Shown: positions 7,382 through 30,043, counted from the stretch's first letter. The stretch is DNA of 64,000 bases from PVC group bacterium (GCA_024231215.1 JAAEQR010000072.1:65210-129209), one strand, 5' to 3'. Translations and numbers: made by a program. Notes: generated by a model not told the origin, from the sequence alone.

Positions 7382-8066
7382 TACAAAATTTGAGCATATT
7401 GATCGAAACTATAAAGATAGTCTGGTTTTGATTCCCGGCTGGGCTACAGATTACCGTATTTTTGAATTGTTTGACTTACCATATAATTATCTTATTCCGA
7501 CGGCGTTTTGGCCGCTTGATTTTGAACAAGAGCTTCTTTTAGTACTGGCGGAAAGAAAGATAGAAGAAATTTCTTTGTTTGGGTATTCATTAGGGGGATT
7601 TTTAGCGGCAGAACTTGCTGTGCGTAATCCTGACTTAATCAGCAAGGTTGTATTAGCCGGAATAAGAACACATTATCCAAAAAAAGAAATTGGACTGGTA
7701 AAAAGACTTTTAAAAAAAGATAAAGTTGGATACCTGGATAAGTTTTATGAACAGTGTTTTTTAGATAATCAGGAATTTTTGCGTTTTAAAGAGAAGCTAA
7801 GCAAAAATTATGTTCAGGAGTTTTCATTAGAGTATTTGCTGAAAACACTAGATTATCTTGAGCAGACATCAATCGACGTAGAATCATTAAATAAGCTTAA
7901 AACAAAGGTGACATTGATTCATGGGGAAGATGATCATATTGCTCCGATTCAAGGAGCCCAGACAATAAAAAATAAGTTGAATAATTGCGGGTTTTTGTTA
8001 CTTGAAGATGTTGGACATTTTCTTTTTTGGGATAAGAAATTTAACGGATTGAATGGATTGTTATGA
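7353..8066 (+). CDS. bioH: pimeloyl-ACP methyl ester esterase-like alpha/beta hydrolase (BioH/BioG-type)
   Basis: GYSLGGFLAAELA nucleophile elbow (GxSxG). Position between bioF and bioC in the operon. Alternative start ATG 7374 overlaps the bioF stop. Confidence 0.6.
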   Translation: MRLQRLKMYNTKFEHIDRNYKDSLVLIPGWATDYRIFELFDLPYNYLIPTAFWPLDFEQELLLVLAERKIEEISLFGYSLGGFLAAELAVRNPDLISKVVLAGIRTHYPKKEIGLVKRLLKKDKVGYLDKFYEQCFLDNQEFLRFKEKLSKNYVQEFSLEYLLKTLDYLEQTSIDVESLNKLKTKVTLIHGEDDHIAPIQGAQTIKNKLNNCGFLLLEDVGHFLFWDKKFNGLNGLL

Positions 8067-8830
8067 GCGTTAAAGAATTGATAAGAAACAATTTTTCTAA
8101 AAGCGCGTCTTCTTATGATGCATATGCACAGGTTCAAAATTTGTGTGCTCGAGAATTGGCTCAAAGGATTAATATTCAGTATCCGGGGACAATTCTCGAT
8201 GTGGGCTGCGGAACCGGTAACTTTAGCCAGCTTTTAAGAACAAAATTTGCTCAGGCAAAAATTACCGGAGTTGATATTTCCGAAGAAATGATTCAACACG
8301 CGAAAATCAGATGTAAGCAGGATGATATTAAGTTTATTGTTGCAGACGCAGAAAGAATGGATTGTTGCGAGCGCTTTGATTTAATTACTTCAAACGCAAC
8401 TATGCAATGGTTTGAAGACCTCCCCGAGGTTTTAAATAAATATAAAAATATGCTTGAAGATCAGGGAATGATAATCATTTCTTTGTTTGGGCCGCAGACA
8501 TTTAGAGAGCTAAATGTCTGCTTGCAGTCTCTATGGGGGACCGAAGATGTTATTTATTCTCAACGATTTCTGGATCAGTATGCGATTGAAGTAATATTTA
8601 AAAAGTTTTTTCAAGAAGTTTTGGTTGAAAAAATAGTGCATAAAGAATGTTTTGATAATGTATGGGATATGTTGTGCAGGATAAAATATACAGGAGTACG
8701 CGGTAATTCTTTTGCCGGGGGAAGCCTTTGGACCCCAAATAGGATTAAGCAGTTGGAGGATATTTATCGGGATAAATTCAAGCGGATAGAAGTAACGTAT
8801 GAGATGTTTTTTTGTCGGGGGGGAAAATGA
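8063..8830 (+). CDS. bioC: malonyl-ACP O-methyltransferase
   Basis: Class I SAM MTase motif ILDVGCGTGNFSQLL. Bio operon context. Start overlaps the bioH stop (ATGA). Confidence 0.8.
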   Translation: MSVKELIRNNFSKSASSYDAYAQVQNLCARELAQRINIQYPGTILDVGCGTGNFSQLLRTKFAQAKITGVDISEEMIQHAKIRCKQDDIKFIVADAERMDCCERFDLITSNATMQWFEDLPEVLNKYKNMLEDQGMIIISLFGPQTFRELNVCLQSLWGTEDVIYSQRFLDQYAIEVIFKKFFQEVLVEKIVHKECFDNVWDMLCRIKYTGVRGNSFAGGSLWTPNRIKQLEDIYRDKFKRIEVTYEMFFCRGGK

Positions 8831-9528
8831 CGGCAATTTTTGTAACCGGAACAGATACCGGAGTAGGAAAAACTATTGTTTGTGGGTTGTTAGGGCGATT
8901 TGCGCAGGATCAGGGGCAGCGGGTGGTTACACAAAAATGGATACAAACCGGAAGTAAGCGTTTTCCTGAGGATATTAGTCGCCATTTACAAATAATGAAA
9001 AGGCATAGACAAGATGTTCGTAAGGAGATTTCTTTTATTTGTCCCTATGTTTTTCCTTTTGCGGCATCACCGCATCTGGCTGCGACGAAGGCTTTAAAAC
9101 GCATTGATAAGAATAAAATAAAACAGGCATTTTGCCGGCTACAGCAGCAGTATGATTGTGTTGTTGTTGAGGGGATTGGCGGTGCGTTAGTTCCTTATAA
9201 TAAAAAAAGATTGGTGATTGATATTGCTAGGGAGTTAAAACTACCGGTATTGATTGTAGTGCAGAATAAACTGGGAGCGATAAATCACACTTTATTAACA
9301 ATTGAAGCTATAAAAAAAAGAAACATGAATCTAATCGGCGTGGTATTTAATACACCAGCCGGGAATGCTCAAAAAATAATTAGAGAGGATAATCGGAAGA
9401 TTATTAATGCTTTAACCGGTATAAAAGTTTTTGGGGAGTTACCATATTCCCAAAATGATGAAGTATTGTATAGTGAGTTTAGGAAATGGGGCAGGAGTAT
9501 TATCAGGAGAAGTAACGATAATGGATAA
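8827..9528 (+). CDS. bioD: dethiobiotin synthetase
   Basis: P-loop MTAIFVTGTDTGVGKT. ATG 8827 overlaps the bioC stop and follows GGGGGGGAAA. The track ORF extends to 8812. Confidence 0.85.
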   Translation: MTAIFVTGTDTGVGKTIVCGLLGRFAQDQGQRVVTQKWIQTGSKRFPEDISRHLQIMKRHRQDVRKEISFICPYVFPFAASPHLAATKALKRIDKNKIKQAFCRLQQQYDCVVVEGIGGALVPYNKKRLVIDIARELKLPVLIVVQNKLGAINHTLLTIEAIKKRNMNLIGVVFNTPAGNAQKIIREDNRKIINALTGIKVFGELPYSQNDEVLYSEFRKWGRSIIRRSNDNG

Positions 9529-10858
9529 GTGGATTAAAAAAGACTTACAATACGTTTGGCATCCTTATACACAGATGAAAGACTGTGAAACATTTCCGCC
9601 GGTTTTAATTGAAAAAGCCAAAGGAATAAAGTTGTTTGATAGTAAAGGAAAGGTGTATTTTGATACCATATCCAGTTGGTGGTGTAATGTTCATGGACAC
9701 AATCATCCACGTATAAAAAAAGCGCTTAAACAGCAGATTGAAAAATTGGACCATGTTCTTTTTGCCGGATTTACGCATAAACCGGCGATTTGTTTAGCGG
9801 AAAAACTGTTGGAGATTAGCCCCCGGAACTTGCGGCGTGTATTTTTTTCAGATAATGGTTCTACAGCCGTGGAATCTGCCCTGAAAATATCATTTCAGTA
9901 TTGGCTGAATAAAGGAAAGAAAGGGAAGAAAAAATTTGTATCCTTAGATCATGCTTATCATGGTGATACGATTGGAGCCATGAACGTTAGCGGTATGAGT
10001 TTATTTAATGAAATGTTTTCCCCGTTATTTTTCTCCTCTTATAAAGTGCCTTCTCCTTATTGTTACCGTTGCCCAGTGAAAAAAAAATACTCTTCTTGCG
10101 GTATTGATTGCATTAGGCCTCTGGAAAAACTACTGGATAAGAAACACCGGGAAATCGCTGCAATTATTCTGGAGCCTTTAGTCATGGCTGCCGGTGGAAT
10201 GATTATTTATCCTAAAGAATATTTAAGAAAAATATCACAGTTGGCTAAAAAGTACGGTACTCATCTGATCTTAGATGAAGTGGCGACTGGTTTTGGGCGT
10301 ACGGGGAAAATGTTTGCTTGTGAACATGCGAATATTAAGCCTGATTTCATGTGTCTTTCTAAAGGAATTACGTCTGGGACGATGCCATTAGCTGCGACGC
10401 TTACTACAGAAAGAATATTCAAGGCGTTTTACGATGATTATCATAAAGGTAAAACATTTTTTCATGGACATACTTATACGGCTAATCCATTAGCTTGTGC
10501 GGCGGCATTAGCCAGCCTGGATATTTTTAAGGAGGAGAAAACGCTGCTTATTATGCAGGATAATATAAGGTTCTTTCATGACGAATTGAAAAAGTTTTCT
10601 GAATTATCTATTGTCGGAGATGTTCGGCAAATTGGTTTTATCGGAGCGCTTGAGCTGGTACAGGATAAAGCAGATAAAACTCCTTTTAAAGCCAGGATCG
10701 GTATGCATATTTATCAGCAAGGGCTTAAACAGGGATTAATTTTACGGCCATTGGGAAATATTGTTTATTTATTTTTACCATTATGTATTAAGAAGAAAGA
10801 GATGGCTGAAGTTTTGCAAAAGACATATAATATTATAAAGGCCTGTAAATGTGTATGA
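9521..10858 (+). CDS. bioA: adenosylmethionine-8-amino-7-oxononanoate aminotransferase
   Basis: Class III aminotransferase (HGHTYTANPLA, DEVATGFGRTG, PLP Lys region CLSKG). Chosen start MDKWIKKDLQYVWHPYTQM at 9521. The track ORF 9431 overlaps bioD in the same frame. Confidence 0.85.
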   Translation: MDKWIKKDLQYVWHPYTQMKDCETFPPVLIEKAKGIKLFDSKGKVYFDTISSWWCNVHGHNHPRIKKALKQQIEKLDHVLFAGFTHKPAICLAEKLLEISPRNLRRVFFSDNGSTAVESALKISFQYWLNKGKKGKKKFVSLDHAYHGDTIGAMNVSGMSLFNEMFSPLFFSSYKVPSPYCYRCPVKKKYSSCGIDCIRPLEKLLDKKHREIAAIILEPLVMAAGGMIIYPKEYLRKISQLAKKYGTHLILDEVATGFGRTGKMFACEHANIKPDFMCLSKGITSGTMPLAATLTTERIFKAFYDDYHKGKTFFHGHTYTANPLACAAALASLDIFKEEKTLLIMQDNIRFFHDELKKFSELSIVGDVRQIGFIGALELVQDKADKTPFKARIGMHIYQQGLKQGLILRPLGNIVYLFLPLCIKKKEMAEVLQKTYNIIKACKCV

Positions 10859-15912: not shown

Positions 15913-16006
15913 TTAAAGAATTTTTTGAACTTTTTCAATCTGCTTTTTAAAGATAATAATAAAAGTTTAGTAATTCAATATATGTGATTTAAAAAGGAGG
16001 ATTATT

Positions 16007-19000
16007 ATGTTTAAGGCTCCACCTAATATGTTTTTGAGGATTACCTCACTAGCAATCATCCAAATATTTTTAATTACTAATGTCTCTTTTGCCGGAGGCA
16101 ATTTTTTTGCCCAAAATCAGGGGGAGGACTGTCTTTCGCCTGCCTTAGAGATCAATGCCGGAGCATTAAAGCAGGGAATATTAGCTGTTATTGAGGGAGA
16201 TAGTATTCCCAATGATGTTTCCAGCTTGGAAATGACCACATTATTGGAAACGGCACTGAGTAATCTTAGTGATATTGAAAATAATTCAGAGGACTTAAAT
16301 CTTGAAGTCTTGGAACAGTCAATAGATCAAGTAAGACAAATTAATGCGCAAATTAATTATCTTACGGGGGGTAGTGACGAGGGAGTAAATGATCTTTATT
16401 CAAGATTTCTTAGTAGACGTTCAGATTTAGCAAAAAAAATATCCGCAATAGTAATAAATGATGTTGCTAAGTATGCAGGTGTTTTAGAAAAGCTAGTTAG
16501 TCAATCAAAAGAGGATATGCATAAGCATATAGCTATGATGGTTGAGAATGAGAAGATAACTGCTACACAGGGAGATGCAACATTAAAAACAGCTATAAAG
16601 TTTCTTGAAGAATGGTTAGCTCCAGGAAATAACATTCCTCAATATATTATTCAGGGTATATATAAGGGGATGTTAGAAGGTCGTTCAGGAGATCTCTTAT
16701 ATGCGTATGGATTTGGCTGGCGTCAGTTTGGTACAGCTGGAATCAGGAATCAGGCGGTGCAAAGTGAATTCCCAGTTTTACTTCAGAAAGAAGTTGATGA
16801 ATTTGCTGAAGATGTGCATGCTCCAATATTAACTGGTCCAAATATGATTAATACAGTTACTTTATTGCAGCAGGTGGCAGCTTTGGTTGGATTGGTCAAA
16901 GATATTAGAACCAAATTGCAGCAAAAACTCAATAAAGGTATGAGTTTGGCAAATGCGGCTGAGGAATGTGGAATAGCTGAAGAATTTGCACAAAACATGT
17001 TGGATAACACGATTACCGTTACCTATGATAGTCGGTTGAATGGGGAATATTTTGCTCAGTTGCTTGGTGCCGCATTTTTGCAGAAAGATATAAAAGTAAA
17101 CCTTATGGATAGTCCATCCGGAGTACCGGCTGGAGTTTCTATTGCAAAAGGTGCTTCTTTTTTTGGTGAATTGGTTAAAGATTCTCGTTTTGCTGAGTTT
17201 GAACAGATAACAGGATCTATTTTTGGAATTCTTATTTCTGCCAGTCATAGTGAAGCAGAATATAATGGGTTTAAAGCATTTTTGGCGTATCAAAAATCAC
17301 AAGTAGATGCTGATAGTAAAAATATGATAATGGATGCCAGGGGAAATGTTAACTATAGCGATATAAACATGCGATTAGATACAGGATCTAAAGAAGATTT
17401 AAGATTGATATTTAGAAAATATAAGAATAATTTAATCTGGCTGGGTGGGGAGAAGAAAGTAGATGGCAAAGATTATTGTGGTGCCAAATTCGTACCTTTT
17501 TATCCGCTTTATTTTGAATATTTACGTAAAAGATCACCGATTCCTTATGCTGAATTGTCAAGTGATGATATTGAATCGATTAATGCAGCGAAAAAAGATC
17601 TAGGCATCTTATATACTGCTTTTTATGGTGGCGGATCTGTTTCTGCTGCTAATCTACCGGGATTTTTCCAGGAAATGGGATATGATAATGTAGCTATTGT
17701 AGATAAACAAACTAAAGTTATGGATGGGAAATTTCCAGGGCATATAATGCCTGATCCGGGTGTTGTAGAAGGATGGATGAGTAATTTGTATCATTTTCTT
17801 CAGCAGATAGCCGGAGAGGATTTGTCGGATATAGAAAAAGCCGTAGAAATGCTTAATAATAGACAGACGGGTGCTGCTACAGACCCGGATGTTGACCGGG
17901 CAGGTATGATGTTGGATTTAGAACCAGGGCAGCAAGGCAATGTGCGGGATGCTTTTATTGACTGGATAAGTCGGAATTTACAATACAGAGATGATATTTT
18001 GCCTGAAAAAAAACAACATATTATTAATGTTTTAACAAATAATTTAAAAGATAAATTGTTATTAACGGCAAATGATTCCTGGACATTTATGGCATATTAT
18101 AAGCTGCAGATCAGGGAAAAATATGGGTTGCTGGATAAAAACAAGCTTTACATCATTGAAAAATCCCATGTTACTACAGACGGGCTTGAAAATGTTGCCG
18201 CATATTATCGCAAGAAAGGTTATCGTGTGTATGTTGTGGATACATATGTAGGATTTACAGAATTGGCTAAAAAAAGCCGGGATTTGTTTGCTATAGCAAA
18301 AAAGGCATGGAAGATCAAAAAAATGTTAGATAAGTTAGATGAGCCAAATGAGCAAGAACTAAGGTGGGGTGAACTAGAAGAATTGCTGATAGAACTTAAA
18401 CAAGAGAATAAGATTTTAAAGACTAATGTTCCGTATGCTACCGCTGGATTACCCATAGTTGATGAGGCTATAGAGGCATTTGAAAATAGTAATTTTCAAA
18501 AAGCGGAAGAACTCTGGAATAGTATTGCCCATATGGAGAATATTTTGGCTTGTGAGGAAAGTAACGGTTATGGAGAGCTGGGGGAATATATTCCGGAAGA
18601 AGATAAAGTAGTGAATGCCCACATATCTGAAAAGGATGGAGGGTTAGCTTTGTTTGAGTTTTTTGAAATACTCTCTTATGGAAAAGCTGTTTTGGGAAAA
18701 TCGGAATATTCGATGTTTTTAGATATGCTTAGCGAAATAGGGTATTGTACAACAGATAACCAGTTTTTAAAATATCCGGGGCTTAGCGGGGTTCAGGAAA
18801 AAGTGGATGCGATTGAGAGTTTTGAAAAGGTATTTGCAGCTTTAATTCAAAAGGCTATTGATCAGGGCCAGGTAGTTACTTTATTTAATGGAAAGTATAC
18901 AGTAGAAGAAGTTATCGTTTACAGAGATAAAAAATATGATATTACTTATAATGGGTTTCCTGAGGAAGGAATCCGTTTAGTTTTGCGTACACAGAAGGGG

Positions 19001-22000
19001 AGCAAAGCGATAACAACATTTAGACCTTCCGGCACCGGTGATAATAACCGGGATTATAACTGGATAGTGGGTTTGATTCCTGAGACTGGGACTGATATGG
19101 AAGTTTATAGGAGAGAAAAAGTACAGGAATTAGAAGAACTCAGGGCTGATTTTTTTGGTGAATTTGGAGTTTCTGTTGGTTATGCAGATTTGCCTAAAGG
19201 TGAATTTTATGGATTGTTGACTGCAATGTGGGAATCAGGCAGTAATAGTCATTTAGCAATATTCAACAAAGCTTTAGACATAGAAGTTAACTTTACTTCA
19301 GCTGAAAACAAGTTACTTGATGCTGTAAAAATGTTTACCTTTGCGACAAGAGATAGAAAACGGGAATATATGAAAATGACTCCGGATCAAATGTGCGAAG
19401 AATTGCGTAAGACTCTTTTGTCCGCAAGGCGAAATCGAGCTGCATGGAATAAATATCTTTCTGCGAAGGAAGCAACAGAGTATAAAGATGTATTTAAGGT
19501 ATATGTTAATGGTGAAGTATTTGCTGAAGTCCCGAAAGTTTTTGTTAAACCGTGGATGATCGGGTTTGCCGGATATATTGCTGAAGAGTTGATCGTAAAC
19601 AGATTGGATTTAACAAGTGCTTGGGTTGATACGGATGATTTGGAAGTGACAGATGAGATACGTTTTCAGATAGATAAATTACAGCAAATAAGGCAGGAAT
19701 TGAATGAAATGCATAGAGCCGAACGTGAAGCAGCAGAAACTCTTTCTGGAAAACTGCATACACCTTTGGAAACAGAAAATCCTGATATGGCGGCACGATA
19801 TCTCAAGGGTGGATATCAGCAAGATGGATATGGTGTTCCATCGGGAGCGGTCATCGACGGCTCCTTTGCGGTGGGTGTTGCAGGGACTCAGGGATACTAT
19901 GTGTATGGAGGCAAAGAGATATTTCAAGGGATTGTTGCAAGTATGAAGAAGTTTTTCAAAAAACGAGCTAAAAGGTTAGGCAAGCCGATAAAATTGGTTA
20001 TAAAGATAGGTATTGGCGGACAGCATACTCCATTTCAAGCGATTGCTGAGGGATTTCAGGTGGTGGATTCTGAAACAGGAATTATTGTCGGGGAGTATGA
20101 GTTAGGGAAGGATTATGAGACATCTCTTTCGGAAATTGTAGAAAAGATGGGTATTGATTGGGATCAGATAGCTGTTATACCGAGCTCTAAATCCGGTTCT
20201 ACGGATGAGACGATGATGATCTTTGATGATGTTTTAGCTGTACTGCTTAAATATATTGCTTCTATGAAATATAACATTGACGGAGAAAAATTTACAGATA
20301 CTGTTTTTCAGGTATTGCATGAAGTGAATTTTGTTGATGGTAAAGAGCGTTCTGGGAAAGATCTTTTTAAGATAAATAAAGAGCGTTTTGGCACGGATAG
20401 TTTGGTAGAAGTGCTCTATGAACGGTTACAAGATAAAAGGATGCAAATAAGTAAAAGCGGAATAAAAGATATATTTGCGATAGTTCTCGGTAATATGTTT
20501 TTTGAGACTACCGATAGAGTAGAAGCAAGCAGATTGTCAGCATTTATCAGAAACTCCGGACTAGATAAGGAGCTTGGTGAAGATGCTCCAGGGTTTGGTG
20601 CAATGTTTGATAATGTCGGTGGCAGATGGACCAGTGATTTGCATATGATGACATTTCTTGCTTTCCATGATTTAAATGAGGAGCTGTATTATAAGAAAAG
20701 GATGGAAGAAATATTTAGGGTTCTTGCCGGTTCACCTTCAGTGAGGCTGTATCAGGATATAAAAGAAAAAATAGATGATGATGGCACACATAAGGGGTAT
20801 ATGTTAGGCAATCGTATTGCTGAGGAAACGATAACGGATATTGCTCTAGTGTTGCCGGATTATTTATTCTGGTTTGGAAAATCAATAGAACAGAATTTTA
20901 ACGAAAGTACTTGGCAGAAAGGCTTTGTAAATCTTGTTGCGATTAAACAAAGCCAATGGGGTGTTCAGAAAAAAAATTATGTGGACAGGTCTGAAAGACT
21001 GGTAATTAACCTGTCTAACTTAGATATTGATGAAAATAGTTTTAATGTGTATACCCGAAATTTCCCTGATTTTACTAAGTTGCAAAAACAGGATATCTCT
21101 GGTCAGTACGCATCTTTATTTAGCATGTTCTATGGAATTACTCATAATTTGGGTAACCGGCTGATTATCAGAGCACTTACAGCTGCCGGATATAATGTAG
21201 AAGATGTTAACTTAAATGATTTAGATAATCCTGCGACTAAAATTGTTCAGCAAAATCTTTATGTATTACAGCCTTTTGTAGAATTAGGGAAGAAACTATT
21301 GGAAAATAGATTAAAAATGCTGCAATCAGCAGAGGTAAAAAGCCCGGGAGTTATTGCTCAGGCTGAAGATGAGATTAAAAGGCTGGCAAGGGAAGGTACC
21401 ATAGAATCAAATATTCCAAGCATGGATATGCCAGATAGTGTGCAGGATATGGGAACACTGGCTAAGGTTATTAAGCAAGCAATTGAACATGCAAGGCAAG
21501 CTAATCGTAAATTTGCGCCGTTTATTTATTTAGAAGGTGGTAAATTTATGGATATGAGGGATTACCTGACAGAGTTGGGTATAGAGTGGGTTATGCAGGG
21601 TACGGGGGATCAGCATATTAGTTATCAGCAGGTATTAGCTCAGCCGCAGAAATATTCTATATTTATTATTTCATTTGTTCCTGAACAATTTATTCCGGGT
21701 AAGCCGGCAATTGGTTTTGCAAAAGGGTATTTGCATAATATTAGTCCTAATATGGTGAGAGATTATTTTGCGGAAGCTTCTTATCGGGCGCTTACTCAGT
21801 TAAGAGTTGAACAGGGTGGGAGAGGGATCTTCCTGCGTTTAATCGACTCACAGGAAAATATATCTATGATAAAAAAGGCAATGGTGGCAGCTCTGAATGA
21901 TGAAGTTCAAAATGAGATGGTAGCTGATTCACCGGCTGTTGCTGAGAATGATTCTGTAAAAACAGAAGAAGTGATAACTGTTATCCAGAGCGCAATTTAA
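16007..22000 (+). CDS. giant (1,997 aa) exported multidomain protein: Sec signal peptide + unknown N-domain + PGM1-like alpha-D-phosphohexomutase (4 domains) + coiled-coil linker + phosphoglucose-isomerase-like SIS module
   Basis: Signal peptide aa 1-30 (h-region ...SLAIIQIFLITNV, SFA-GG). Phosphohexomutase signatures: FGTAGIRN (nt ~16730), catalytic SASHSE-x3-NGFK (nt ~17237), DGKFPGHIMPDP (nt ~17723), Mg loop DPDVDR (nt ~17882), sugar loop CEESNGYGE plus EKDGGLALFEFF (nt ~18551), phosphate loop RPSGTGD (nt ~19022). PGI signatures: IGIGGQ (nt ~20006), SKSGSTDET (nt ~20186), GGRWTS (nt ~20618), GTGDQHISYQQ catalytic-His region (nt ~21599). Confidence 0.8.
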   Translation: MFKAPPNMFLRITSLAIIQIFLITNVSFAGGNFFAQNQGEDCLSPALEINAGALKQGILAVIEGDSIPNDVSSLEMTTLLETALSNLSDIENNSEDLNLEVLEQSIDQVRQINAQINYLTGGSDEGVNDLYSRFLSRRSDLAKKISAIVINDVAKYAGVLEKLVSQSKEDMHKHIAMMVENEKITATQGDATLKTAIKFLEEWLAPGNNIPQYIIQGIYKGMLEGRSGDLLYAYGFGWRQFGTAGIRNQAVQSEFPVLLQKEVDEFAEDVHAPILTGPNMINTVTLLQQVAALVGLVKDIRTKLQQKLNKGMSLANAAEECGIAEEFAQNMLDNTITVTYDSRLNGEYFAQLLGAAFLQKDIKVNLMDSPSGVPAGVSIAKGASFFGELVKDSRFAEFEQITGSIFGILISASHSEAEYNGFKAFLAYQKSQVDADSKNMIMDARGNVNYSDINMRLDTGSKEDLRLIFRKYKNNLIWLGGEKKVDGKDYCGAKFVPFYPLYFEYLRKRSPIPYAELSSDDIESINAAKKDLGILYTAFYGGGSVSAANLPGFFQEMGYDNVAIVDKQTKVMDGKFPGHIMPDPGVVEGWMSNLYHFLQQIAGEDLSDIEKAVEMLNNRQTGAATDPDVDRAGMMLDLEPGQQGNVRDAFIDWISRNLQYRDDILPEKKQHIINVLTNNLKDKLLLTANDSWTFMAYYKLQIREKYGLLDKNKLYIIEKSHVTTDGLENVAAYYRKKGYRVYVVDTYVGFTELAKKSRDLFAIAKKAWKIKKMLDKLDEPNEQELRWGELEELLIELKQENKILKTNVPYATAGLPIVDEAIEAFENSNFQKAEELWNSIAHMENILACEESNGYGELGEYIPEEDKVVNAHISEKDGGLALFEFFEILSYGKAVLGKSEYSMFLDMLSEIGYCTTDNQFLKYPGLSGVQEKVDAIESFEKVFAALIQKAIDQGQVVTLFNGKYTVEEVIVYRDKKYDITYNGFPEEGIRLVLRTQKGSKAITTFRPSGTGDNNRDYNWIVGLIPETGTDMEVYRREKVQELEELRADFFGEFGVSVGYADLPKGEFYGLLTAMWESGSNSHLAIFNKALDIEVNFTSAENKLLDAVKMFTFATRDRKREYMKMTPDQMCEELRKTLLSARRNRAAWNKYLSAKEATEYKDVFKVYVNGEVFAEVPKVFVKPWMIGFAGYIAEELIVNRLDLTSAWVDTDDLEVTDEIRFQIDKLQQIRQELNEMHRAEREAAETLSGKLHTPLETENPDMAARYLKGGYQQDGYGVPSGAVIDGSFAVGVAGTQGYYVYGGKEIFQGIVASMKKFFKKRAKRLGKPIKLVIKIGIGGQHTPFQAIAEGFQVVDSETGIIVGEYELGKDYETSLSEIVEKMGIDWDQIAVIPSSKSGSTDETMMIFDDVLAVLLKYIASMKYNIDGEKFTDTVFQVLHEVNFVDGKERSGKDLFKINKERFGTDSLVEVLYERLQDKRMQISKSGIKDIFAIVLGNMFFETTDRVEASRLSAFIRNSGLDKELGEDAPGFGAMFDNVGGRWTSDLHMMTFLAFHDLNEELYYKKRMEEIFRVLAGSPSVRLYQDIKEKIDDDGTHKGYMLGNRIAEETITDIALVLPDYLFWFGKSIEQNFNESTWQKGFVNLVAIKQSQWGVQKKNYVDRSERLVINLSNLDIDENSFNVYTRNFPDFTKLQKQDISGQYASLFSMFYGITHNLGNRLIIRALTAAGYNVEDVNLNDLDNPATKIVQQNLYVLQPFVELGKKLLENRLKMLQSAEVKSPGVIAQAEDEIKRLAREGTIESNIPSMDMPDSVQDMGTLAKVIKQAIEHARQANRKFAPFIYLEGGKFMDMRDYLTELGIEWVMQGTGDQHISYQQVLAQPQKYSIFIISFVPEQFIPGKPAIGFAKGYLHNISPNMVRDYFAEASYRALTQLRVEQGGRGIFLRLIDSQENISMIKKAMVAALNDEVQNEMVADSPAVAENDSVKTEEVITVIQSAI

Positions 22001-22008: not shown

Positions 22009-22072
22009 TTAGCTGCAAATACCGACATGCCCCGTCAGGGTTTTTCTGACGGGGTTTTGTTATATAATAAGG
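22009..22072 (+). repeat. ~65-bp intergenic repeat copy A (TTAGCTGCAAATACCGACATG-[hairpin]-TTTTGTTAT-ATAAGG)
   Basis: ~85% identical to the copy at 24712-24777, same orientation. Confidence 0.8.
22030..22060 (+). terminator. rho-independent terminator after giant gene (CCCCGTCAG-loop-CTGACGGGG + TTTTGTTAT)
   Basis: 9-bp GC-rich stem at 22030-22038/22046-22054 followed by a T-tract. Lies inside repeat copy A. Confidence 0.7.
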
Positions 22073-22088: not shown

Positions 22089-24434
22089 TTAAATTGACTG
22101 TTCATAGATAAAATGATTATTTATTTCATCTTGAATTTTATGATTATTTTTTGAAGACATATTGATATCCTTGTCCCATGAATTTTGTTTTTCTTCTATT
22201 AAGTCTACTATCCGTTTTCCATAGCCGTTGATTCCATCTTCATTTTCAATTGCTTCTAAAGACATCCAAAGCCAATCAATAGCATTTTGCACAGTATCAA
22301 CATCGTCTTTCACATTAGCTCTAGCATTAGCGCTTACTGATTCATACAATTTCTTATTAGTAAATAAGCTGTACAATCTATTCGCTACTTTTAACTCCTG
22401 AGCCCCATTGCGACTAACTATAAATGTCGAACCGGTTATTTTTCCTGCTTTTTTTCTAACAGGCACTGCCTGATCAACCGGTCCCGGGAGATCAGTAATA
22501 ATAGTTGGTATTTCTAGTGAGCCAAGTTCAGAAATTTTTATTTCGTAACCTTCTGCTGTAGATAACTGTGTCCCAACCCAATCATTAGCAGCAAGAACAC
22601 CTAAGATCTGGTCATTATGGCCTATTCGTGCTATTTTGATATCACTGAATAACTCTTTATATTCTAAATATGCTTCTAAGAGATATTTATTATACAAAGG
22701 CATCCCCTCAGGATCATCTATTGCGCCATGCCCGGCAATAACCAACTGTGGTATTTTTGCCTTTGGATAGGTCTCTCCCAATTTATCACGAAAGACTTTA
22801 TAAGCTTTCAAAAGATCAAGGATACCCTTTGCAGGGTCAAAGCGACAAATCTGTAATATATAAGGTCTGGTAAAATCTAATGGCTCCTGTTGAAATTTTG
22901 CTAAAAAGTCTCTTAATTTTTGATCTTCTCGGTCTTTAATATTTACTCGATTGTCATTCTCTAATAAATTTAACAGGTTTTCCTGCTGTTTAGACAATTC
23001 ATTTTTATCTGCTATTTGTAATATTCTTTTATTACTTAGGTTCAGTACTGTATTAAACATATTCATATAATATGATTTGTCGCTTTTACTAAAATAATTA
23101 AATTTGTTAAGTCCGTCAAGACCGCCTAAACCTTGTTTTGAAATATCGGAAGCTGCTCCTTTTTTGATTATTATTTTTTTGTGACGGCGAATATCGTTTG
23201 GGATAAAAGCATCAACTGGATGCGTCACAAAAGCTTCAATGTGAAATTTATTTTTGCGTGCATCCCAAAGATTTTCGAAAATATACTTCCAATTAGTCTT
23301 AGTTGAATTAGAATCATCTAAAGGTAAATCAGTCAAGTTGCTTCTTATCTGGATATGTGATCTATAAAGAATTTTTATATGTGGATATTTTTCTTTAATT
23401 AAAGGTATTAACCCGGATGGTTGATAATCATCAATTATAACTACAGTTGCTCTTTTTATTTTTGGCTCCATTAATTTAAAATTATAATTAGTCCACGCTT
23501 TAAGTCTCTGTTTGTCATGCTCTGTAAGCCTATGATCAAAATTAGCAGCATTTGTATTTTGCAATGCATTATGCATCTTCTTTTTTGTTATGTTCGGAAT
23601 ATCCTCAAACTCTTTACCATCTAGATCCATTGCAAGCCAGTGGGCATCGATACCTAAAAGTTTATAAAGACGAATAAGCGCATGACGCATAAGAGCGACT
23701 CCTCCGCCTTGAGCAGTAGAATTAACAAATACCATATTTAATTTTCTTTTTTTTGCAAGCTTAACAAGATGTAAAAGTGTGTGCCATTTTTTAGGCGGAG
23801 TAATCTTTTTATATTCATCAAGAGTTACTAACGGATTTACTTGGATTTCTCTATTTTTATCGATCATAACTTTGCGTATTACAAGACCAACTTCGTCTAC
23901 TTCAAAGCTATTTGCGGCAAGACTCGCAGCATTCTGAGATATTTGCTCTGATGTGCCATTTGGAAGATTCTCAAATATTTTCACAGGAACAATATCGTTA
24001 TTAAGCCAAAGATTGCTGCCCAGCTTTGCTTTTTCGTTGGCAGATAATCCTTTTCCTTCAATTGCTACGCCATGTACTTTTAAAGGGTTACCCTTCTTGC
24101 GCATGCCCTCAACATCCTCTCTTATAGCTTCAATTATATCCTTATTAGTTCTTAAGAAAGTTTTAGTTTGACCATTCTTACCATTGGAATTAATTGTTAA
24201 GCTAAAGCTATCTTTAGTTATACATATGCCAGCAAAGGCGGGCTCTAAAGATAGCTTATCCAGATAGGCATTCATAACTGTTGACTTGTTTATACTTATG
24301 GAGGGGGATAGCGTGGACATTATGGTGCTATTGGCGGCAAAAGACAAATCCAGATATAAAAATGCCTGGATAATGATAAATGATATTACCTTTAAAAATA
24401 GTCTATTTTTTGATTCGTACTTATACATATACAC
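22089..24434 (-). CDS. TreT-like GT4 retaining glycosyltransferase with signal peptide and ~200-aa N-terminal extension
   Basis: aa 236-300 VNSTAQGGGVALMRHALIRLYKLLGIDAHWLAM...FEDIP...MHNALQN closely matches the N-terminal motif of trehalose glycosyltransferring synthase (TreT). FDPAKGILDLLKAY. E628-x7-E636 (STAEGYEIKISELGSL...ITDLPG) GT4 motif. N-terminal signal peptide MYMYKYESKNRLFLKVISFIIIQAFLYLDLSFA-AN. Confidence 0.75.
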   Translation of the reverse strand: MYMYKYESKNRLFLKVISFIIIQAFLYLDLSFAANSTIMSTLSPSISINKSTVMNAYLDKLSLEPAFAGICITKDSFSLTINSNGKNGQTKTFLRTNKDIIEAIREDVEGMRKKGNPLKVHGVAIEGKGLSANEKAKLGSNLWLNNDIVPVKIFENLPNGTSEQISQNAASLAANSFEVDEVGLVIRKVMIDKNREIQVNPLVTLDEYKKITPPKKWHTLLHLVKLAKKRKLNMVFVNSTAQGGGVALMRHALIRLYKLLGIDAHWLAMDLDGKEFEDIPNITKKKMHNALQNTNAANFDHRLTEHDKQRLKAWTNYNFKLMEPKIKRATVVIIDDYQPSGLIPLIKEKYPHIKILYRSHIQIRSNLTDLPLDDSNSTKTNWKYIFENLWDARKNKFHIEAFVTHPVDAFIPNDIRRHKKIIIKKGAASDISKQGLGGLDGLNKFNYFSKSDKSYYMNMFNTVLNLSNKRILQIADKNELSKQQENLLNLLENDNRVNIKDREDQKLRDFLAKFQQEPLDFTRPYILQICRFDPAKGILDLLKAYKVFRDKLGETYPKAKIPQLVIAGHGAIDDPEGMPLYNKYLLEAYLEYKELFSDIKIARIGHNDQILGVLAANDWVGTQLSTAEGYEIKISELGSLEIPTIITDLPGPVDQAVPVRKKAGKITGSTFIVSRNGAQELKVANRLYSLFTNKKLYESVSANARANVKDDVDTVQNAIDWLWMSLEAIENEDGINGYGKRIVDLIEEKQNSWDKDINMSSKNNHKIQDEINNHFIYEQSI

Positions 24435-24711: not shown

Positions 24712-24777
24712 TTAGTTGCAAATACCGATATGCCCCGTCAGGTTTTTTTTGACGGGATTTTGTTATTTTCAATAAGG
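24712..24777 (+). repeat. ~65-bp intergenic repeat copy B with terminator-like hairpin (CCCGTCA-GGTTTTTTT-TGACGGG)
   Basis: Direct repeat of 22009-22072. Located in the divergent promoter region between the GT4 gene (-) and mscS (+). Confidence 0.8.
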
Positions 24778-27970: not shown

Positions 27971-29026
27971 ATGTATTATCCGGTTACAAGATTGAGAAGG
28001 CTTCGTAAAAGTCAAATTCTGAGAGATATGATTCAGGAAACAGATTTAAATGTGCGTTCTTTGATTTATCCGGTTTTTGTTGTCGAAGGGGAGAGTGTAA
28101 AAAAACCGATAAAGTCTATGCCTGGGCATTACAGGGTTTCGACAGACGTTCTGTTGAAAGAACTTAAAGAAATTACGGAATTACATGTTCCGGCTATAAT
28201 GTTGTTTGGAATTCCGGAACGTAAAGATGAACGTGCTACAGCGGCATATGCTAAGAACGGAATTGTACAGACCGCGGTTAAAGCTATAAAAGACAAATAT
28301 CCGAAACTTGTGGTAATTACTGATGTCTGTCTTTGTGCGTATACATCTTCTGGTCATTGTGGGATTGTGAAGAACTGGGCTGCACCAAATAAAGAAGAGA
28401 CAACTGATGAATTACAGAAAACTGAAAGCAGTCAAGCACAGGATATAGTTATTTATAATGACGCCTCTTGTGAATTGCTGGCTAAAATGGCTATTTCCCA
28501 TGCTGAGGCCGGTGCGGATATGGTTGCACCCAGTAGTATGATGGACGGACAGGTAGCGGCGATTAGAGGGGGATTAGATGCGAATAATTTTAAGCATATA
28601 CCAATTTTAGCTTACAGCGCTAAATATTCTTCAGCATTCTATGGACCGTTTCGAGAAGCAGCAAATTCTGCTCCCGGGGCTGGGGATCGCAAGACTTATC
28701 AGATGAATCCGGCGAATGCGGCTGAAGCAATGAGGGAAATGGAATTGGATATCCAGGAAGGTGCGGATATTCTTATGGTTAAACCAGCGCTGGCTTATTT
28801 AGATATAATAGCTAAAGCAAAACAGCGTTTTAATATCCCTTTGGTTGCGTATAGTGTAAGTGGTGAGTTTTCAATGATCAAAGCGGCTGTGGCTAACGGT
28901 TGGGTGGATGAAAAAGAGATTGTATTGGAAACATTGACCAGCATGAAACGAGCCGGAGCGGATTTGATAATTACCTATTATGCCAAAGATGTAGCGCGTT
29001 GGCTGAGCGGAAAGTTTTTACTCTAA
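27971..29026 (+). CDS. hemB: porphobilinogen synthase (delta-aminolevulinic acid dehydratase)
   Basis: Active-site lysine regions (MVAPSSMMDGQV; ILMVKPA) and YSAKYSSAFYGPFREA. Contains a ~35-aa acidic insertion (NWAAPNKEETTDELQKTESSQAQD). Confidence 0.9.
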   Translation: MYYPVTRLRRLRKSQILRDMIQETDLNVRSLIYPVFVVEGESVKKPIKSMPGHYRVSTDVLLKELKEITELHVPAIMLFGIPERKDERATAAYAKNGIVQTAVKAIKDKYPKLVVITDVCLCAYTSSGHCGIVKNWAAPNKEETTDELQKTESSQAQDIVIYNDASCELLAKMAISHAEAGADMVAPSSMMDGQVAAIRGGLDANNFKHIPILAYSAKYSSAFYGPFREAANSAPGAGDRKTYQMNPANAAEAMREMELDIQEGADILMVKPALAYLDIIAKAKQRFNIPLVAYSVSGEFSMIKAAVANGWVDEKEIVLETLTSMKRAGADLIITYYAKDVARWLSGKFLL

Positions 29027-30043
29027 ATGTTGATTTCTTGGAATATTACCAAAGCTTGTAATTTAAAGTGTGAACATTGTTATCGTGATGCCGGAAATTC
29101 TCAGAATAATGAATTAAGTTTGGAAGAGGGGAAGACCTTACTTTCGGATTTAAAGTCACTGGGGTTCCGGCTGATTATTTTTTCCGGCGGAGAGCCTTTG
29201 CTGCGGGATGATTTATATGAGCTGATTAGCTTTTCCCGTAGTTTGGGGTTGATTAGTGTATTAGGAACTAATGGGACATTAATTGATGATAATATTGCGC
29301 AGAAATTAAAGCAGGTGGGGCTTAAGCGTGTGGGTATAAGTCTTGATTCTGTTATTCCCCAGCGGCATGATCGGTTTCGCGGTATTGATAAGTCTTGGGA
29401 GAAAGCGGTCGGTGGTATGAAAAGCTGTAAGAAGGTCGGCCTCGAATTTCAGGTTCATACTACGGTTACGACTAAAAATATAAATGAGGTTTTAAATATA
29501 ACTGATTTTGCTCAAAAGATCGGAGCACAAGCCCATCATATATTTTTTCTTGTTCCTACCGGAAGAGGTAAAAATATCGATACAGTTATTCCTAGTGCTG
29601 CAGAGTACGAATCATTACTTACCAATATCCTAGAGAAACAAAGCAAAGTATCTATAGAATTAAAGCCGGTATGTGCCCCGCAATTTACACGTATTGCAAG
29701 GACTAGGCATATTGATACCCGTTTTGAAAAAGGATGTTTAGCGGGTGTAAGTTATGCCTGTATCTTGCCGGATGGAACAGTTCATCCTTGTCCTTATTTA
29801 CCGATTGATTTAGGGAATGTGCGGGAGCAGGGAATTATTGATATCTGGCAAAAAAATGAAACATTAAAGAAATTACGTGACGCCGAATGGGGAGGTAAAT
29901 GCGGAATATGCGAATTTAAAGATATTTGTTCCGGATGTCGCGCAGCCGCGTTCTATCAATCACAAGGTGACTATTTAGCTGAGGATATAAATTGTTCTTA
30001 TGAACCCAAAAGAAAAAAAATTATTGAAGATCCTGCAATCTGA
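29027..30043 (+). CDS. radical SAM/SPASM enzyme of the AhbC/AhbD/NirJ family (alternative heme biosynthesis)
   Basis: CNLKCEHCY radical SAM motif plus C-terminal SPASM cysteines (CGKCGICEFKDICSGCRAAAF). Sits between hemB and the ahbA/B-like genes. Confidence 0.7.
   Translation: MLISWNITKACNLKCEHCYRDAGNSQNNELSLEEGKTLLSDLKSLGFRLIIFSGGEPLLRDDLYELISFSRSLGLISVLGTNGTLIDDNIAQKLKQVGLKRVGISLDSVIPQRHDRFRGIDKSWEKAVGGMKSCKKVGLEFQVHTTVTTKNINEVLNITDFAQKIGAQAHHIFFLVPTGRGKNIDTVIPSAAEYESLLTNILEKQSKVSIELKPVCAPQFTRIARTRHIDTRFEKGCLAGVSYACILPDGTVHPCPYLPIDLGNVREQGIIDIWQKNETLKKLRDAEWGGKCGICEFKDICSGCRAAAFYQSQGDYLAEDINCSYEPKRKKIIEDPAI

Follow-up and report, generated by a model that had tools for sequence, protein, structure and literature searches.

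A leader-bearing phosphoglucomutase–isomerase fusion protein of an Omnitrophota-type bacterium with a predicted role in hexose-phosphate interconversion

Introduction

Cytoplasm-type metabolic enzymes that are preceded by signal peptides raise the question of what such proteins do and where they do it. For Omnitrophota, this puzzle has been flagged in two preprints, which describe long multi-enzyme proteins that contain phosphoglucomutase (PGM), phosphoglucose isomerase (PGI), and other glycolytic domains and that are predicted to be extracytoplasmic, a location that is puzzling to their authors (10.1101/2023.11.21.568195; 10.64898/2026.06.07.730766). Names that appear there are 'Archaeovorins' (West-Roberts et al. 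2023, 10.1101/2023.11.21.568195) and 'Module 2 sugar metabolism' and 'multi-enzyme metabolic clusters' (2026 preprint, 10.64898/2026.06.07.730766). The published examples comprise 10-150 kaa and are experimentally unmanageable.

The same question arises for a gene at positions 16007-22000 (+ strand) of a 64,000-nucleotide stretch of DNA, here referred to as the window, from a PVC group bacterium (GCA_024231215.1, JAAEQR010000072.1:65210-129209). In a preliminary description based on the sequence alone, its product was read as an exported protein that fuses a phosphohexomutase to a PGI-like isomerase and that could not be placed in known biology; the signal-peptide-bearing multi-enzyme Omnitrophota proteins of the two preprints do provide such a place. 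In this study, the protein, from an Omnitrophota-type (PVC) bacterium, is assigned, with a probability of roughly three in four, as a bifunctional enzyme of hexose phosphates with a modular build: a leader, a PGM, and a divergent glucose-6-phosphate isomerase (dPGI).

Results

An intact gene with its own signals

The region 16007-22000 is one genuine gene with an intact ORF of 1997 codons plus a stop, read directly from the sequence, and NCBI lists the identical product as 'hypothetical protein GY853_02950 [PVC group bacterium]'. A strong ribosome-binding site, AAGGAGG, is located 6 nt 5' of the ATG (15994-16000, + strand), and a hairpin terminator (22029-22055, no strand assigned), with a 12-bp stem of which 7 pairs are GC, followed by a T-run, lies between this gene and a convergent one; a hairpin pattern of this kind was not found in shuffled sequence. 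The 1,997-aa ORF of the preliminary description is therefore in place, as are all nine motifs quoted there, from SASHSE (aa 411-416) through GTGDQHISYQQ (aa 1865-1875).

The source is a metagenome-assembled genome, which leaves room for an artefact, e.g., an assembly chimera, a frameshift or missing stop that joins two genes, or a mis-called start that gives a false leader; a frameshift or chimera had also been named in the preliminary description as grounds for abandoning its reading. The chance of any of these is negligible. Composition is uniform along the whole gene, the annotated start has the strong ribosome-binding site, and the leader is kept in relatives. An assembly chimera is excluded because P0002, a JGI homolog from an independent metagenome, has the matching order of PGM core followed by dPGI (40% and 55% identity, respectively), and a canonical PGM followed by dPGI is also found as a fusion in P0040, L023, and L028.

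An insertion-expanded four-domain phosphoglucomutase

In the Pfam search proposed in the preliminary description, PGM_PMM_I was the only PGM model above threshold (E 9e-8, 32.3 bits vs. a gathering score of 22.5); PGM_PMM_II was weak and below threshold (E 0.0026, 18.7 bits vs. 29.3), domains III and IV were not found, and neither Pfam PF00342 nor the NCBIfam PGI models matched. The whole protein gave only a fragmentary GlmM match in NCBIfam and no match in a direct sequence search against the PDB. Because Pfam and NCBIfam were nearly empty, structure prediction with fold search and profile-profile comparison were needed for both halves, and the structure predictions recovered a PGM fold and a double-SIS fold closest to PGIs.

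The PGM spans aa ~236-1030 (16712-19096, + strand), as delimited by Pfam, AF2, and Foldseek. The AF2 model of the PGM region reached pLDDT 83 and pTM 0.81, and its top 10 Foldseek matches in the PDB were all phosphohexomutases (E 1.5e-11 to 7e-7; TM 0.60-0.68 on the target), which establishes the four-domain fold of three alpha/beta/alpha domains and a TBP-like domain 4. All four catalytic loops are invariant across 10 relatives that are 35-58% identical to the protein (PGM-core alignment A2). These are the phosphoserine loop SASHSE with the putative catalytic S413 (aa 411-416, 17237-17254, + strand), which aligns with the 'SASHNP' loop of GlmM; the Mg2+ loop DPDVDR (aa 626-631, 17882-17899, + strand), invariant as D-P-D-x-D-R; the sugar-binding loop CEESNG (aa 849-854, 18551-18568, + strand), invariant as E-E-S-N-G-Y-G-E; and the phosphate-binding loop RPSGTGD of domain 4 (aa 1006-1012, 19022-19042, + strand), invariant as R-x-S-G-T-G. 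The E-E-S form of the sugar loop is PGM-type, as in glucose-specific PGMs, and EKDGG is located at aa 875-879. The superfamily patterns (T/S)-A-S-H, D-x-D-x-D-R, E-x-S, and R-x-S-G-T are all present. Fold and loops together uphold the four-domain phosphohexomutase proposed earlier.

The four-domain fold and the four loops, including the E-E-S sugar loop, are shared with Salmonella Pgm (3olp/2fuv). However, bacterial Pgm comprises about 545 residues vs. about 800 here, just domain I exceeds the Pfam thresholds when compared with the phosphohexomutase superfamily, and further elements here are a conserved helical domain N-terminal to the PGM and a 200-aa extension C-terminal to it. The helical domain (aa ~51-235, 16157-16711, + strand), delimited by the BLAST coverage of relatives and by AF2 helices, shows conservation across the PGM-core family that starts near aa 100, and no Pfam match was found for it. 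The extension after domain 4 (aa 1031-1238, 19097-19720, + strand) consists of helices and a beta-hairpin, is family-specific, and could be aligned in 24 PGM-core relatives to about aa 1190-1225. The preliminary description had taken this stretch for a coiled-coil/low-complexity linker of ~250 aa, but it is structured (mostly pLDDT 85-90 in the AF2 model) and conserved.

A double-SIS module closest to phosphoglucose isomerases

The conserved part of the dPGI begins at aa 1239, directly abutting the PGM extension, and comprises 728 aa (aa 1239-1966, 19721-21904, + strand); it is followed by an acidic, non-conserved C-terminal tail (aa 1967-1997, 21905-21997, + strand) that is unaligned in relatives. 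The AF2 model (pLDDT 89.5, pTM 0.90) has a double-SIS fold that is closest to PGIs; both structure searches placed PGIs ahead of every other SIS enzyme, and PGIs were the sole matches of the dPGI profile in the PDB (E 0.036). When the 15 sequences of the dPGI family alignment (A1) were scanned with Pfam PGI, 2 reached E 0.007.

In human PGI, the catalytic residues are the Glu E357 (in 'Q-x-x-x-E-S'), the His H388, and the Lys K518. The equivalents of the catalytic R, Q/E, K, and H are invariant in all 15 sequences of A1, and the PGI-like module of the preliminary description is thus confirmed in fold and motifs. The first SIS phosphate loop, IGIGGQ (aa 1334-1339, 20006-20023, + strand; G-I-G-G invariant), aligns to GIGGS of PGI 3ujh, with Gln in place of the classical Ser. 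The phosphate-binding Ser/Lys/Thr motif SKSGSTDET (aa 1394-1402, 20186-20212, + strand), itself invariant, fits the PGI pattern S-K-(S/T)-x-(S/T)-T-x-E-T and aligns to SK(T/S)xT(x)ET in 3ujh and 7e76. GGRWTS (aa 1538-1543, 20618-20635, + strand; G-G-R-W invariant) fits the pattern G-G-R-(Y/F/W), has R1540 in the place of the catalytic Arg of PGI, and aligns to GGRY in P0003 and P0025, while EQNFNES (20888-20908, + strand; E, Q, N, E, and S invariant) contains Q1629 and E1633, which correspond to the Gln and the catalytic Glu of PGI; its counterparts in Pfam-positive PGIs are EQLLEES and QISTES. The 'Q-x-x-V-E-x-x-K' motif QPFVELGK with K1762 (aa 1755-1762, 21269-21292, + strand; Q, V, E, and K invariant) aligns with DQPAVEGYKK in P0025, and that segment aligns with DQPGVELGK in T. 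thermophilus PGI 1zzg. Residue 1918 (R680 in the numbering of the module) had been considered as a replacement for the catalytic Lys and was rejected, as QPFVELGK matches the PGI Lys motif. Lastly, the catalytic His motif GTGDQHISYQQ with H1870 (aa 1865-1875, 21599-21631, + strand; G, T, Q, H, I, S, and Q invariant) aligns with G-PDKNHSFHQN in P0025 and with 'DQH' in PGI 7e76.

The Lys motif precedes the His motif, an arrangement of the transaldolase/PGI type that no solved PGI has. In a comparison with a mixed set of classical and Lys-before-His PGIs, the dPGI profile reached 27-42% probability and the alignment failed in the C-terminal half, because two PGI types had been pooled; splitting the set by type before the final profile-profile alignment fixed this. 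With the PGIs that match NCBIfam NF007080, the dPGI aligned end-to-end with six colinear motifs (hhalign probability 68%). The PGI half of these bifunctional transaldolase/phosphoglucose isomerases (NF007080/PRK09533) has the double-SIS fold, the same motif order (GxGG, SKSGxT, GGR(Y/W), E-x-x-x-x-E-S, Q-x-x-V-E-x-x-K, His motif), and a His motif in the C-terminal alpha/beta unit. It is proposed that the dPGI is a lineage-specific offshoot of this PGI type. Differences are the absence of a direct NCBIfam sequence match, about 160 aa of additional length through insertions, the Gln for the GIGGS Ser, PGM rather than transaldolase as partner, and the leader in front. Classical PGIs (PF00342; T. 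thermophilus 1zzg, Bdellovibrio 7nss) are more distant, with 12-19% identity, a reversed order in which His does not follow the Lys motif, and about 300 residues fewer than the Pfam-negative dPGI.

Modules with a cassette-like distribution

The dPGI cassette was found in >60 mostly Omnitrophota genomes, with a family length of about 720 aa, and in at least 10 genomes it forms a leaderless stand-alone enzyme. It is also fused, leaderless, to a canonical four-domain PGM (P0040) or to transaldolase (P0062), and further to PGM (P0051 and P0057) or UDPGP (P0052). The PGM core, in turn, is fused to classical PGI (P0003), transaldolase-type PGI (P0016, P0018, P0025), or cupin PGI (P0009), and elsewhere to UDPGP and PFK; members of its family also carry UDPGP, PFK, hexokinase, and iPGM modules. 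A C-terminal extension in P0002 resembled transaldolase by eye only and was discarded, as Pfam did not confirm the likeness. Although the preliminary description called a PGM-PGI fusion unusual, such fusions recur with four PGI types, with and without leader; no description of a PGM-PGI fusion enzyme was found in a literature search. The relatives are almost all Omnitrophota MAG proteins, and all close ones are, which agrees with the earlier guess of a nano-sized symbiotic or predatory lineage. The best match among the GTDB representatives scanned is 60% identical.

A Sec-type leader with an additional motif

The leader comprises aa 1-29 (16007-16093, + strand), with predicted cleavage at A29|G30 in a manual rule check. 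Its n-region contains K3 and R11, the h-region of 13 residues reads ITSLAIIQIFLIT, and the c-region NVSFA, in which -3 is S and -1 is A, is followed by GG. In hydrophobicity windows, the N-terminus is the sole hydrophobic segment of the 1997-aa protein, which has no TM helix. By manual rules (positive n-region, h-region of 7-15 residues, small residues at -3/-1, no further TM), the N-terminus fits the canonical cleavable Sec-type pattern, as had been claimed. A lipoprotein signal is rejected because no lipobox follows the h-region, and a Tat signal because the leader has no twin-Arg. The tripartite pattern was present in 19/25 family members.

Past the cleavage site, the motif CLSPALEIN (aa 42-50, 16130-16156, + strand) is common to the neighbouring GT4 and other leader-bearing Omnitrophota proteins, with a shared pattern of phi-phi-Q/H-x-F-L inside the h-region and L-S/A-P-x-phi-x-I-N after the cleavage site. 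The post-leader motif also occurs in P0003, P0127, P0128, and ORFs of L002, L005, and L006, and it is enriched in SP-like ORFs (10/56 vs. 5/148; Fisher p 0.001, or 0.016 after removal of duplicates). Extra conserved motifs in the signal peptides of a subset of large surface proteins are known, e.g., YSIRK/GxxS in staphylococci and ESPR in autotransporters. The leader found here resembles these in principle but is unrelated in sequence, and its motif tags metabolic enzymes.

A neighbouring glycosyltransferase with the same leader

The convergent gene (22089-24434, - strand) encodes a GT4 of 781 aa that is TreT/retaining-trehalose-phosphorylase-like (Pfam TreT_GT1, E 9e-26, plus Glycos_transf_1) and that carries the same leader with the motif LSPSISIN; the N-termini of both proteins match in BLASTP (E 9e-6). 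Leaderless homologs of the GT4 align from aa 118 on, and several homologs have been named 'alpha,alpha-trehalose phosphorylase (configuration-retaining)' by JGI. A conserved operon was ruled out: in two other genomes, the two closest GT4 orthologs are not beside PGM giants, though the GT4 shares the leader. Neighbours in the window include recJ, a PEMT-like gene, an OMP gene (at 12753), the GT4, mscS, and trkH. A hexose-phosphate transporter was not found in the window, nor were adjacent secretion-system genes (T2SS/T4P-like, pilZ) among these neighbours.

Discussion

The proposed polypeptide would run from a Sec-type leader (aa 1-29) with CLSPALEIN through the helical N-domain and the PGM (aa ~236-1238) to the dPGI (aa 1239-1966), and it would interconvert fructose-6-P, glucose-6-P, and glucose-1-P. 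In this way, the protein may link glycolysis/gluconeogenesis to a glucose-1-P pool that is made or used by UDP-glucose pyrophosphorylase, TreT/TreP-like GT4, and glucan synthases, i.e., glucosyl-transfer enzymes that in Omnitrophota are built into similar leader-tagged multi-enzyme proteins. We infer the PGM and PGI activities and the direction of flux from sequence. The predicted PGM reaction, between glucose-1-P and glucose-6-P, would require Mg2+ and glucose-1,6-bisphosphate. For the dPGI, the predicted isomerization between glucose-6-P and fructose-6-P is supported by the fusion partners PGM, transaldolase, and UDPGP, and the combined function is well supported because the dPGI cassette is fused to PGM, transaldolase, or UDPGP and the PGM core to three other PGI types.

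Since Pfam PGI is not recovered and Gln replaces the GIGGS Ser, the C-terminal module could be a double-SIS enzyme of other activity, e.g., a phosphomannose isomerase, a glucosamine-6-P deaminase or synthase-type isomerase, or a tagatose-/psicose-6-P isomerase. This is improbable given that PGIs rank first in both structure searches, that the Glu, Lys, and His motifs specific to PGIs do not vary here and are missing from other SIS enzymes, and that the module is repeatedly joined to enzymes of glucose-6-P (PGM) and fructose-6-P (transaldolase) as well as to UDPGP. The large insertions and extreme divergence, and the view that many Omnitrophota long proteins are adhesins or scaffolds, might instead suggest that one or both modules are catalytically dead and serve as a sugar-phosphate-binding scaffold or sensor in a structural or adhesive giant-protein system. 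Such a role is very improbable: every checkable catalytic residue is invariant across relatives that are just 35-60% identical, and stand-alone copies of about 720 aa exist. An active bifunctional enzyme is thus preferred.

Where this enzyme would work is more evenly balanced. Its export, as claimed earlier, is plausible from the fit of the leader to the rules, but the same dPGI is leaderless and stand-alone elsewhere; judged from sequence features, translocation of both the PGM-PGI protein and the GT4 is the favoured reading, with about an even chance. The chance is slightly below even that, after cleavage of the leader, the enzyme is active beyond the cytoplasm of the producing cell (periplasm, surface, or in/on prey), with the co-targeted GT4 acting as a phosphorylase. 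The ATP-independent line that may result, in which alpha-glucoside or trehalose plus Pi would yield G1P, then G6P, then F6P, followed by hexose-phosphate import, is about equally plausible. The signal is canonical in all three parts, with K/R in the n-region, its c-region resembles that of the OMP and of other proteins in the window that are evidently exported, and it is kept in most relatives; the presence of the conserved motif after the cleavage site in unrelated enzymes points to sorting once translocation has taken place. All three reactions are NTP-free, and GT4 homologs bear the name of retaining trehalose phosphorylase. In published DeepTMHMM surveys, most long proteins of Omnitrophota are classed as SP and/or TM (10.64898/2026.06.07.730766), and an extracellular location was predicted for such glycolytic domains by West-Roberts et al. 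(10.1101/2023.11.21.568195). Against this, the same type of leader precedes sister proteins with UDPGP, PFK, hexokinase, and methyltransferase, which need NTP or SAM, the dPGI also occurs in leaderless PGM-dPGI and dPGI-transaldolase fusions, the window holds no hexose-phosphate transporter, and GT4 adjacency is not conserved. Moreover, sugar phosphates are established metabolites of the cytoplasm, and so is the activator of PGM, glucose-1,6-bisphosphate.

These NTP-dependent partner modules and leaderless versions would be accommodated if the leader were not an export signal in practice but a membrane-targeting or anchoring tag. Non-Omnitrophota GT4 homologs are ordinary and leaderless, with about 55 aa of leader simply added in front in the Omnitrophota form, and the 2026 preprint finds its own sugar-metabolism module compatible with the cytoplasmic face (10.64898/2026.06.07.730766). 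This is nevertheless unlikely, as an h-region of 13 residues is too short for a stable transmembrane anchor and the conserved small residues at -3/-1 are meaningful only with signal peptidase cutting. Because positive charges precede and acidic residues follow the hydrophobic segment, the bulk of the protein would, by the positive-inside rule, lie outside. The fullest version of the extracytoplasmic reading remains doubtful, namely that leader-tagged enzymes are translocated, that an ATP-independent line of phosphorolysis, mutase, and isomerase turns external alpha-glucosides into importable fructose-6-phosphate, and that L-S/A-P-x-phi-x-I-N is a new post-Sec sorting signal. If this is true, bacteria would have their first described pathway for the interconversion of sugar phosphates outside the cytoplasm.

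With its Omnitrophota-origin relatives, two enzymes, and a leader, the PGM-PGI protein is a small member of the recently described Omnitrophota multi-enzyme long proteins. It has in common with them the phylum, the mix of PGM, PGI, and sugar-metabolism domains, and the N-terminal signal peptide; the surveyed proteins, however, have >=10,000 or >=30,000 aa, and many of them contain numerous TM helices, vs. 1997 aa and no TM helix here. A size of at least 10 kaa and flanking T2SS/T4P-like genes and pilZ are features that the protein lacks. The dPGI family, the recurrent PGM+PGI pairing, and the shared leader motif are not described in the text available from either preprint. The long-protein puzzle becomes testable with this protein of 2 kaa, which has a single leader and two enzymes and is small enough to express, assay, and localise, and for which leaderless relatives, both stand-alone and fused, offer natural controls. 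In addition, a PGI family that is missed by Pfam and NCBIfam is now defined. KEGG-based surveys report PGI in only 67/176 complete Omnitrophota genomes (10.64898/2026.06.07.730766). The dPGI family may be the 'missing' Omnitrophota isomerase, in which case metabolic reconstructions of this phylum would change.

The fusion gene and its integrity

The fusion protein is encoded by an uninterrupted open reading frame (ORF) of 1997 codons on the forward strand (16007..22000), which follows a 196-nt intergenic gap, carries a ribosome-binding site (AAGGAGG) 6 nt 5' of its ATG, and is parted from the convergent GT4 gene by a GC-rich 12-bp hairpin with a T-run (22029-22055). Its base composition is even from end to end, and the product is identical to the NCBI entry 'hypothetical protein GY853_02950 [PVC group bacterium]' from a 708-kb contig. 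The ORF named in the preliminary description is thus real, and all motifs quoted there were located in their expected places. Overall, that observation is confirmed with corrections and its interpretation partly supported. An antisense ORF of 143 aa within the phosphoglucomutase (PGM) region (16862-17293, minus strand) is most likely spurious.

Two predicted catalytic modules in one polypeptide

The only Pfam matches in the fusion protein were PGM_PMM_I, above threshold, and PGM_PMM_II, weakly. The proposed domain content was recovered by profile for part of the mutase half only, and the isomerase half matched nothing in Pfam, NCBIfam or, by phmmer, the PDB. In an alignment of residues 100-1240 with nine relatives (35-58% identical), the loops SASHSE, DPDVDR, CEESNG(YGE), and R-x-SGTG were invariant throughout. 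When the AlphaFold2 model derived from it (pLDDT 83, pTM 0.81) was compared with the PDB by Foldseek, everything at E < 0.001 was an alpha-D-phosphohexomutase (target-normalised TM 0.60-0.68), with Salmonella PGM (3olp and 2fuv, E 1.5e-11) at the top and no other fold at E < 0.5. Because of the Pfam domain I match, the invariant loops, and the predicted structure with its Foldseek matches, this half is read as a complete phosphoglucomutase, in which insertions raise the length from ~545 to ~800 residues. A conserved helical domain stands before it, and after it comes an extension (aa ~1031-1238) that had been described as a low-complexity linker; alignment and AlphaFold2 instead indicate a structured, helical plus beta-hairpin segment that is conserved family-wide.

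For the isomerase half, an exhaustive HMMER search with residues 1239-1997 against 1.8 billion representatives retrieved 102 proteins, ~60 of which contain a complete module of ~720 aa (45-62% identity), mostly within proteins of 1,000-7,900 aa. The profile of a 15-sequence alignment of this divergent glucose-6-phosphate isomerase module (dPGI) matched only glucose-6-phosphate isomerases (PGIs) in the PDB (3ujh, E 0.036; 7e76, E 2.5), and with its AlphaFold2 model (pLDDT 89.5, pTM 0.90), Foldseek ranks 1-25 were all PGIs (E from 3e-7), so that structure prediction bore out the assignment of both halves. Invariant in the alignment are SKSGsTDET (phosphate site), GGRW (Arg), EQNFNES (Gln and catalytic Glu), QPFVELGK (Lys motif), and GTGDQHIS (His motif), residues that appear to reproduce the PGI active site.

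An oddity of dPGI is its motif order, Lys before His, with the His motif lying within a C-terminal alpha/beta unit. The same order is found in the PGI segments of three relatives of the fusion protein (P0016, P0018, and P0025). For the P0025 segment, there is a match to NCBIfam NF007080 ('bifunctional transaldolase/phosoglucose isomerase') that covers the entire PGI half (E 1.7e-51); its alignment with Thermus thermophilus PGI extends as far as the Glu motif and resumes at the Lys motif, with ~190 residues beyond. A profile-profile alignment of dPGI with these three segments was colinear over 515 columns and included six of six motifs (E 4.8e-5, probability 68%), which leads us to read dPGI as having branched off from the transaldolase/PGI-type isomerase, diverged strongly, and grown by insertions.

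Distribution and fusion partners

Among 24 whole-protein relatives, the common part comprises only residues ~100-1220, i.e., the PGM core, and a single one, P0002 from a JGI metagenome, has dPGI besides it in the same order. In others the PGM core is joined to a classical PGI (P0003; Pfam PGI, 22.6 bits), a transaldolase-type PGI (P0016, P0018, and P0025), a cupin PGI (PF06560; P0009), or to UDP-glucose pyrophosphorylase (UDPGP), phosphofructokinase, hexokinase, or cofactor-independent phosphoglycerate mutase. Likewise, dPGI is fused to a canonical four-domain PGM in a compact, leaderless protein of 1269 aa (P0040; same architecture at loci L023 and L028), to transaldolase in a leaderless protein of 1235 aa (P0062), to a further type of PGM in P0051 and P0057, and to UDPGP in P0052. 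Scanning GTDB species genomes for dPGI yielded 72 loci, ~53 of them essentially full-length, most in Omnitrophota MAGs and some labelled Elusimicrobia, Planctomycetia, Goldiibacteriota, and Sumerlaeota. Stand-alone forms of ~700-740 aa without a hydrophobic N-terminus occur in at least ten loci (L010, L015, L024, L026, L029, L032, L034, L048, L057, and L058).

Judged from these architectures, both halves are mobile cassettes, and the pairing of PGM with PGI recurs with four PGI kinds. The enzymes to which dPGI is fused produce or consume G6P, F6P, and G1P, which is strong indirect evidence that dPGI is a G6P/F6P isomerase, and the fusions indicate that F6P<->G6P<->G1P coupling is selected for in this lineage. 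On the metagenome contig encoding P0002 (L001), the directly upstream gene (244-5073) encodes a leader-bearing UDPGP protein of 1609 aa, and a G1P-consuming step therefore adjoins the PGM-dPGI gene there.

Leader and shared N-terminal motif

The sole hydrophobic segment of the fusion protein is N-terminal, in agreement with the Sec-like leader described initially. In residues 1-29, a positively charged n-region (K3, R11) is followed by an h-region of 13 residues and then by the c-region NVSFA|GG. This design (K/R, ~13 hydrophobic residues, N-x-(S/A)-(F/Y)-(A/G)) is found in 19 of 25 family members, and x-F-A-like leader ends also occur in evidently exported proteins of the window, e.g., the beta-barrel outer membrane protein (OMP) at 12753. 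The N-termini of the fusion protein (...LRITSLAIIQIFLITNVSFA...CLSPALEIN; 16007-16156, plus strand) and GT4 (...LKVISFIIIQAFLYLDLSFA...TLSPSISIN; 24279-24434, minus strand) are strikingly alike (BLASTP, E 9e-6). Their shared element consists of a signal peptide (SP)-like part, whose h-region has a polar Q/H/W at its centre (phi-phi-Q-x-F-L) and which ends in (S/A)-(F/Y)-A, and, 8-20 residues on, the motif (C/T/Y)-L-(S/A)-P-x-phi-x-I-N. Matched by no Pfam or NCBIfam model, it is lineage-specific and common to unrelated enzymes (PGM-PGI, GT4, UDPGP, and proteins of unknown function). Elsewhere it lies at L001:244, L002:9088, L002:12902, L005:12639-14399 (minus strand), and L006:7825; leader plus L-(S/A)-P-x-phi-x-I-N was found in two ORFs adjoining P0003, a 586-aa ORF beside a GT4 ortholog (L005), and a 1064-aa ORF in L006, and the UDPGP protein beside P0002 has the leader without the strict motif. 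Among 204 ORFs, the strict motif is present in 10 of 56 SP-like N-termini versus 5 of 148 others (Fisher p 0.001; 0.016 without duplicate loci).

Another cytoplasm-type enzyme with a leader in the window is an HD/HD_5 phosphohydrolase of 395 aa (57725-58912, minus strand), with an SP-like start (…LLLAVWLTSAPAANA) followed by 'NAPLTISEK'. HD domains usually serve cytoplasmic signalling.

The neighbouring GT4 gene

GT4 (22089..24434, minus strand) is a TreT-like protein of 781 aa. Leader and motif are kept in both Omnitrophota orthologs and are missing from the ~610-aa homologs of other phyla, several of which are named retaining trehalose phosphorylase by JGI. As to the co-occurrence that the preliminary description wanted checked, adjacency of GT4 to PGM-fusion genes is not conserved in two other genomes. 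The gene is flanked by two related GC-rich hairpins (22029-22055, GCCCCGTCAGGG…CTGACGGGGT; 24734-24756, CCCGTCAGG…TTGACGGG), which probably act as terminators and may represent a small repeat.

Proposed function and location

On this single polypeptide, a PGI-type isomerase directly adjoins a catalytically complete PGM. The protein would interconvert F6P, G6P, and G1P, linking glycolysis/gluconeogenesis with the pool of G1P that serves glucosyl-transfer enzymes. As a phosphorylase, GT4 would provide or use G1P, and as a synthase, it would provide or use trehalose via NDP-glucose.

Whether the protein is truly translocated is close to an even bet (0.45-0.5). The leader conforms to every Sec and signal-peptidase rule, its h-region is shorter than a transmembrane anchor needs, unrelated enzymes share the conserved motif that lies beyond the cleavage site, and the phosphorylase, mutase, and isomerase steps require no ATP. 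However, PGM and PGI act on metabolites of the cytoplasm, the same modules also occur without a leader, and sister proteins with the same leader type include NTP- or SAM-dependent enzymes. That the leader instead tethers the protein at the membrane's cytoplasmic face is considered less likely, and translocation remains the reading we lean towards.

Relation to published Omnitrophota proteins

West-Roberts et al. (10.1101/2023.11.21.568195) describe domains of long Omnitrophota proteins as 'predicted to be in an extracellular region' and name possible mislocalisation as a caveat. A 2026 preprint (10.64898/2026.06.07.730766) defines 'multi-enzyme metabolic clusters' and a domain module for 'sugar metabolism' (starch synthase, GT1, PGM, and ROK kinase), and reports an SP or TM on 94% of proteins >= 10 kaa and PGI in only 67/176 complete genomes by KOfam; giant ORFs are called poorly understood by Seymour et al. 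2023 (PMC10066038). Given these published long multi-enzyme proteins, the fusion protein is a small member of an already known class and not, as it first seemed, impossible to place in known biology, although our literature search found no description of a PGM-PGI fusion enzyme. The accessible portions of these papers do not describe the dPGI family, the transaldolase/PGI-type topology, the leaderless stand-alone proteins, the recurrence of PGM alongside four PGI kinds, or the leader and motif common to the adjacent GT4. As a tractable test case, the fusion protein could help to show why central-metabolism enzymes of Omnitrophota carry signal peptides. dPGI may be an overlooked housekeeping PGI of Omnitrophota, and its compact leaderless relatives (P0040, P0062, and the stand-alone forms) could be the 'missing' PGI of KEGG-based reconstructions.

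Genomic context

The fusion gene is surrounded by housekeeping genes, namely, topA, xerC-like, kdtA, a biotin operon, rlmN, YacP-like, OMP, PEMT-like, and recJ upstream, and mscS, trkH, hemB, radical-SAM genes, tatC, and others downstream. No secretion-system genes or hexose-phosphate transporter were found near it, and no tRNA or Rfam family in the window. The apparent biotin synthesis operon (5289-10858) encodes a BioB-like radical SAM/BATS protein, BioF-like aminotransferase, BioH-like hydrolase, BioC-like methyltransferase, BioD-like AAA_26 protein, and BioA-like class-III aminotransferase. The stretch 27971-32246 (HemB (ALAD), radical SAM/SPASM, two small, putatively Lrp/AsnC-like ORFs at 30000-30922, and a class-III aminotransferase) is laid out like the alternative, siroheme-dependent haem pathway. 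Across the window (1-64000), nearly all genes are on the plus strand and GC skew is strongly positive (0.16-0.33), dropping to ~0.02-0.1 in the sole long minus-strand block (34678-43174), which is consistent with one replichore with a strong gene-strand bias.
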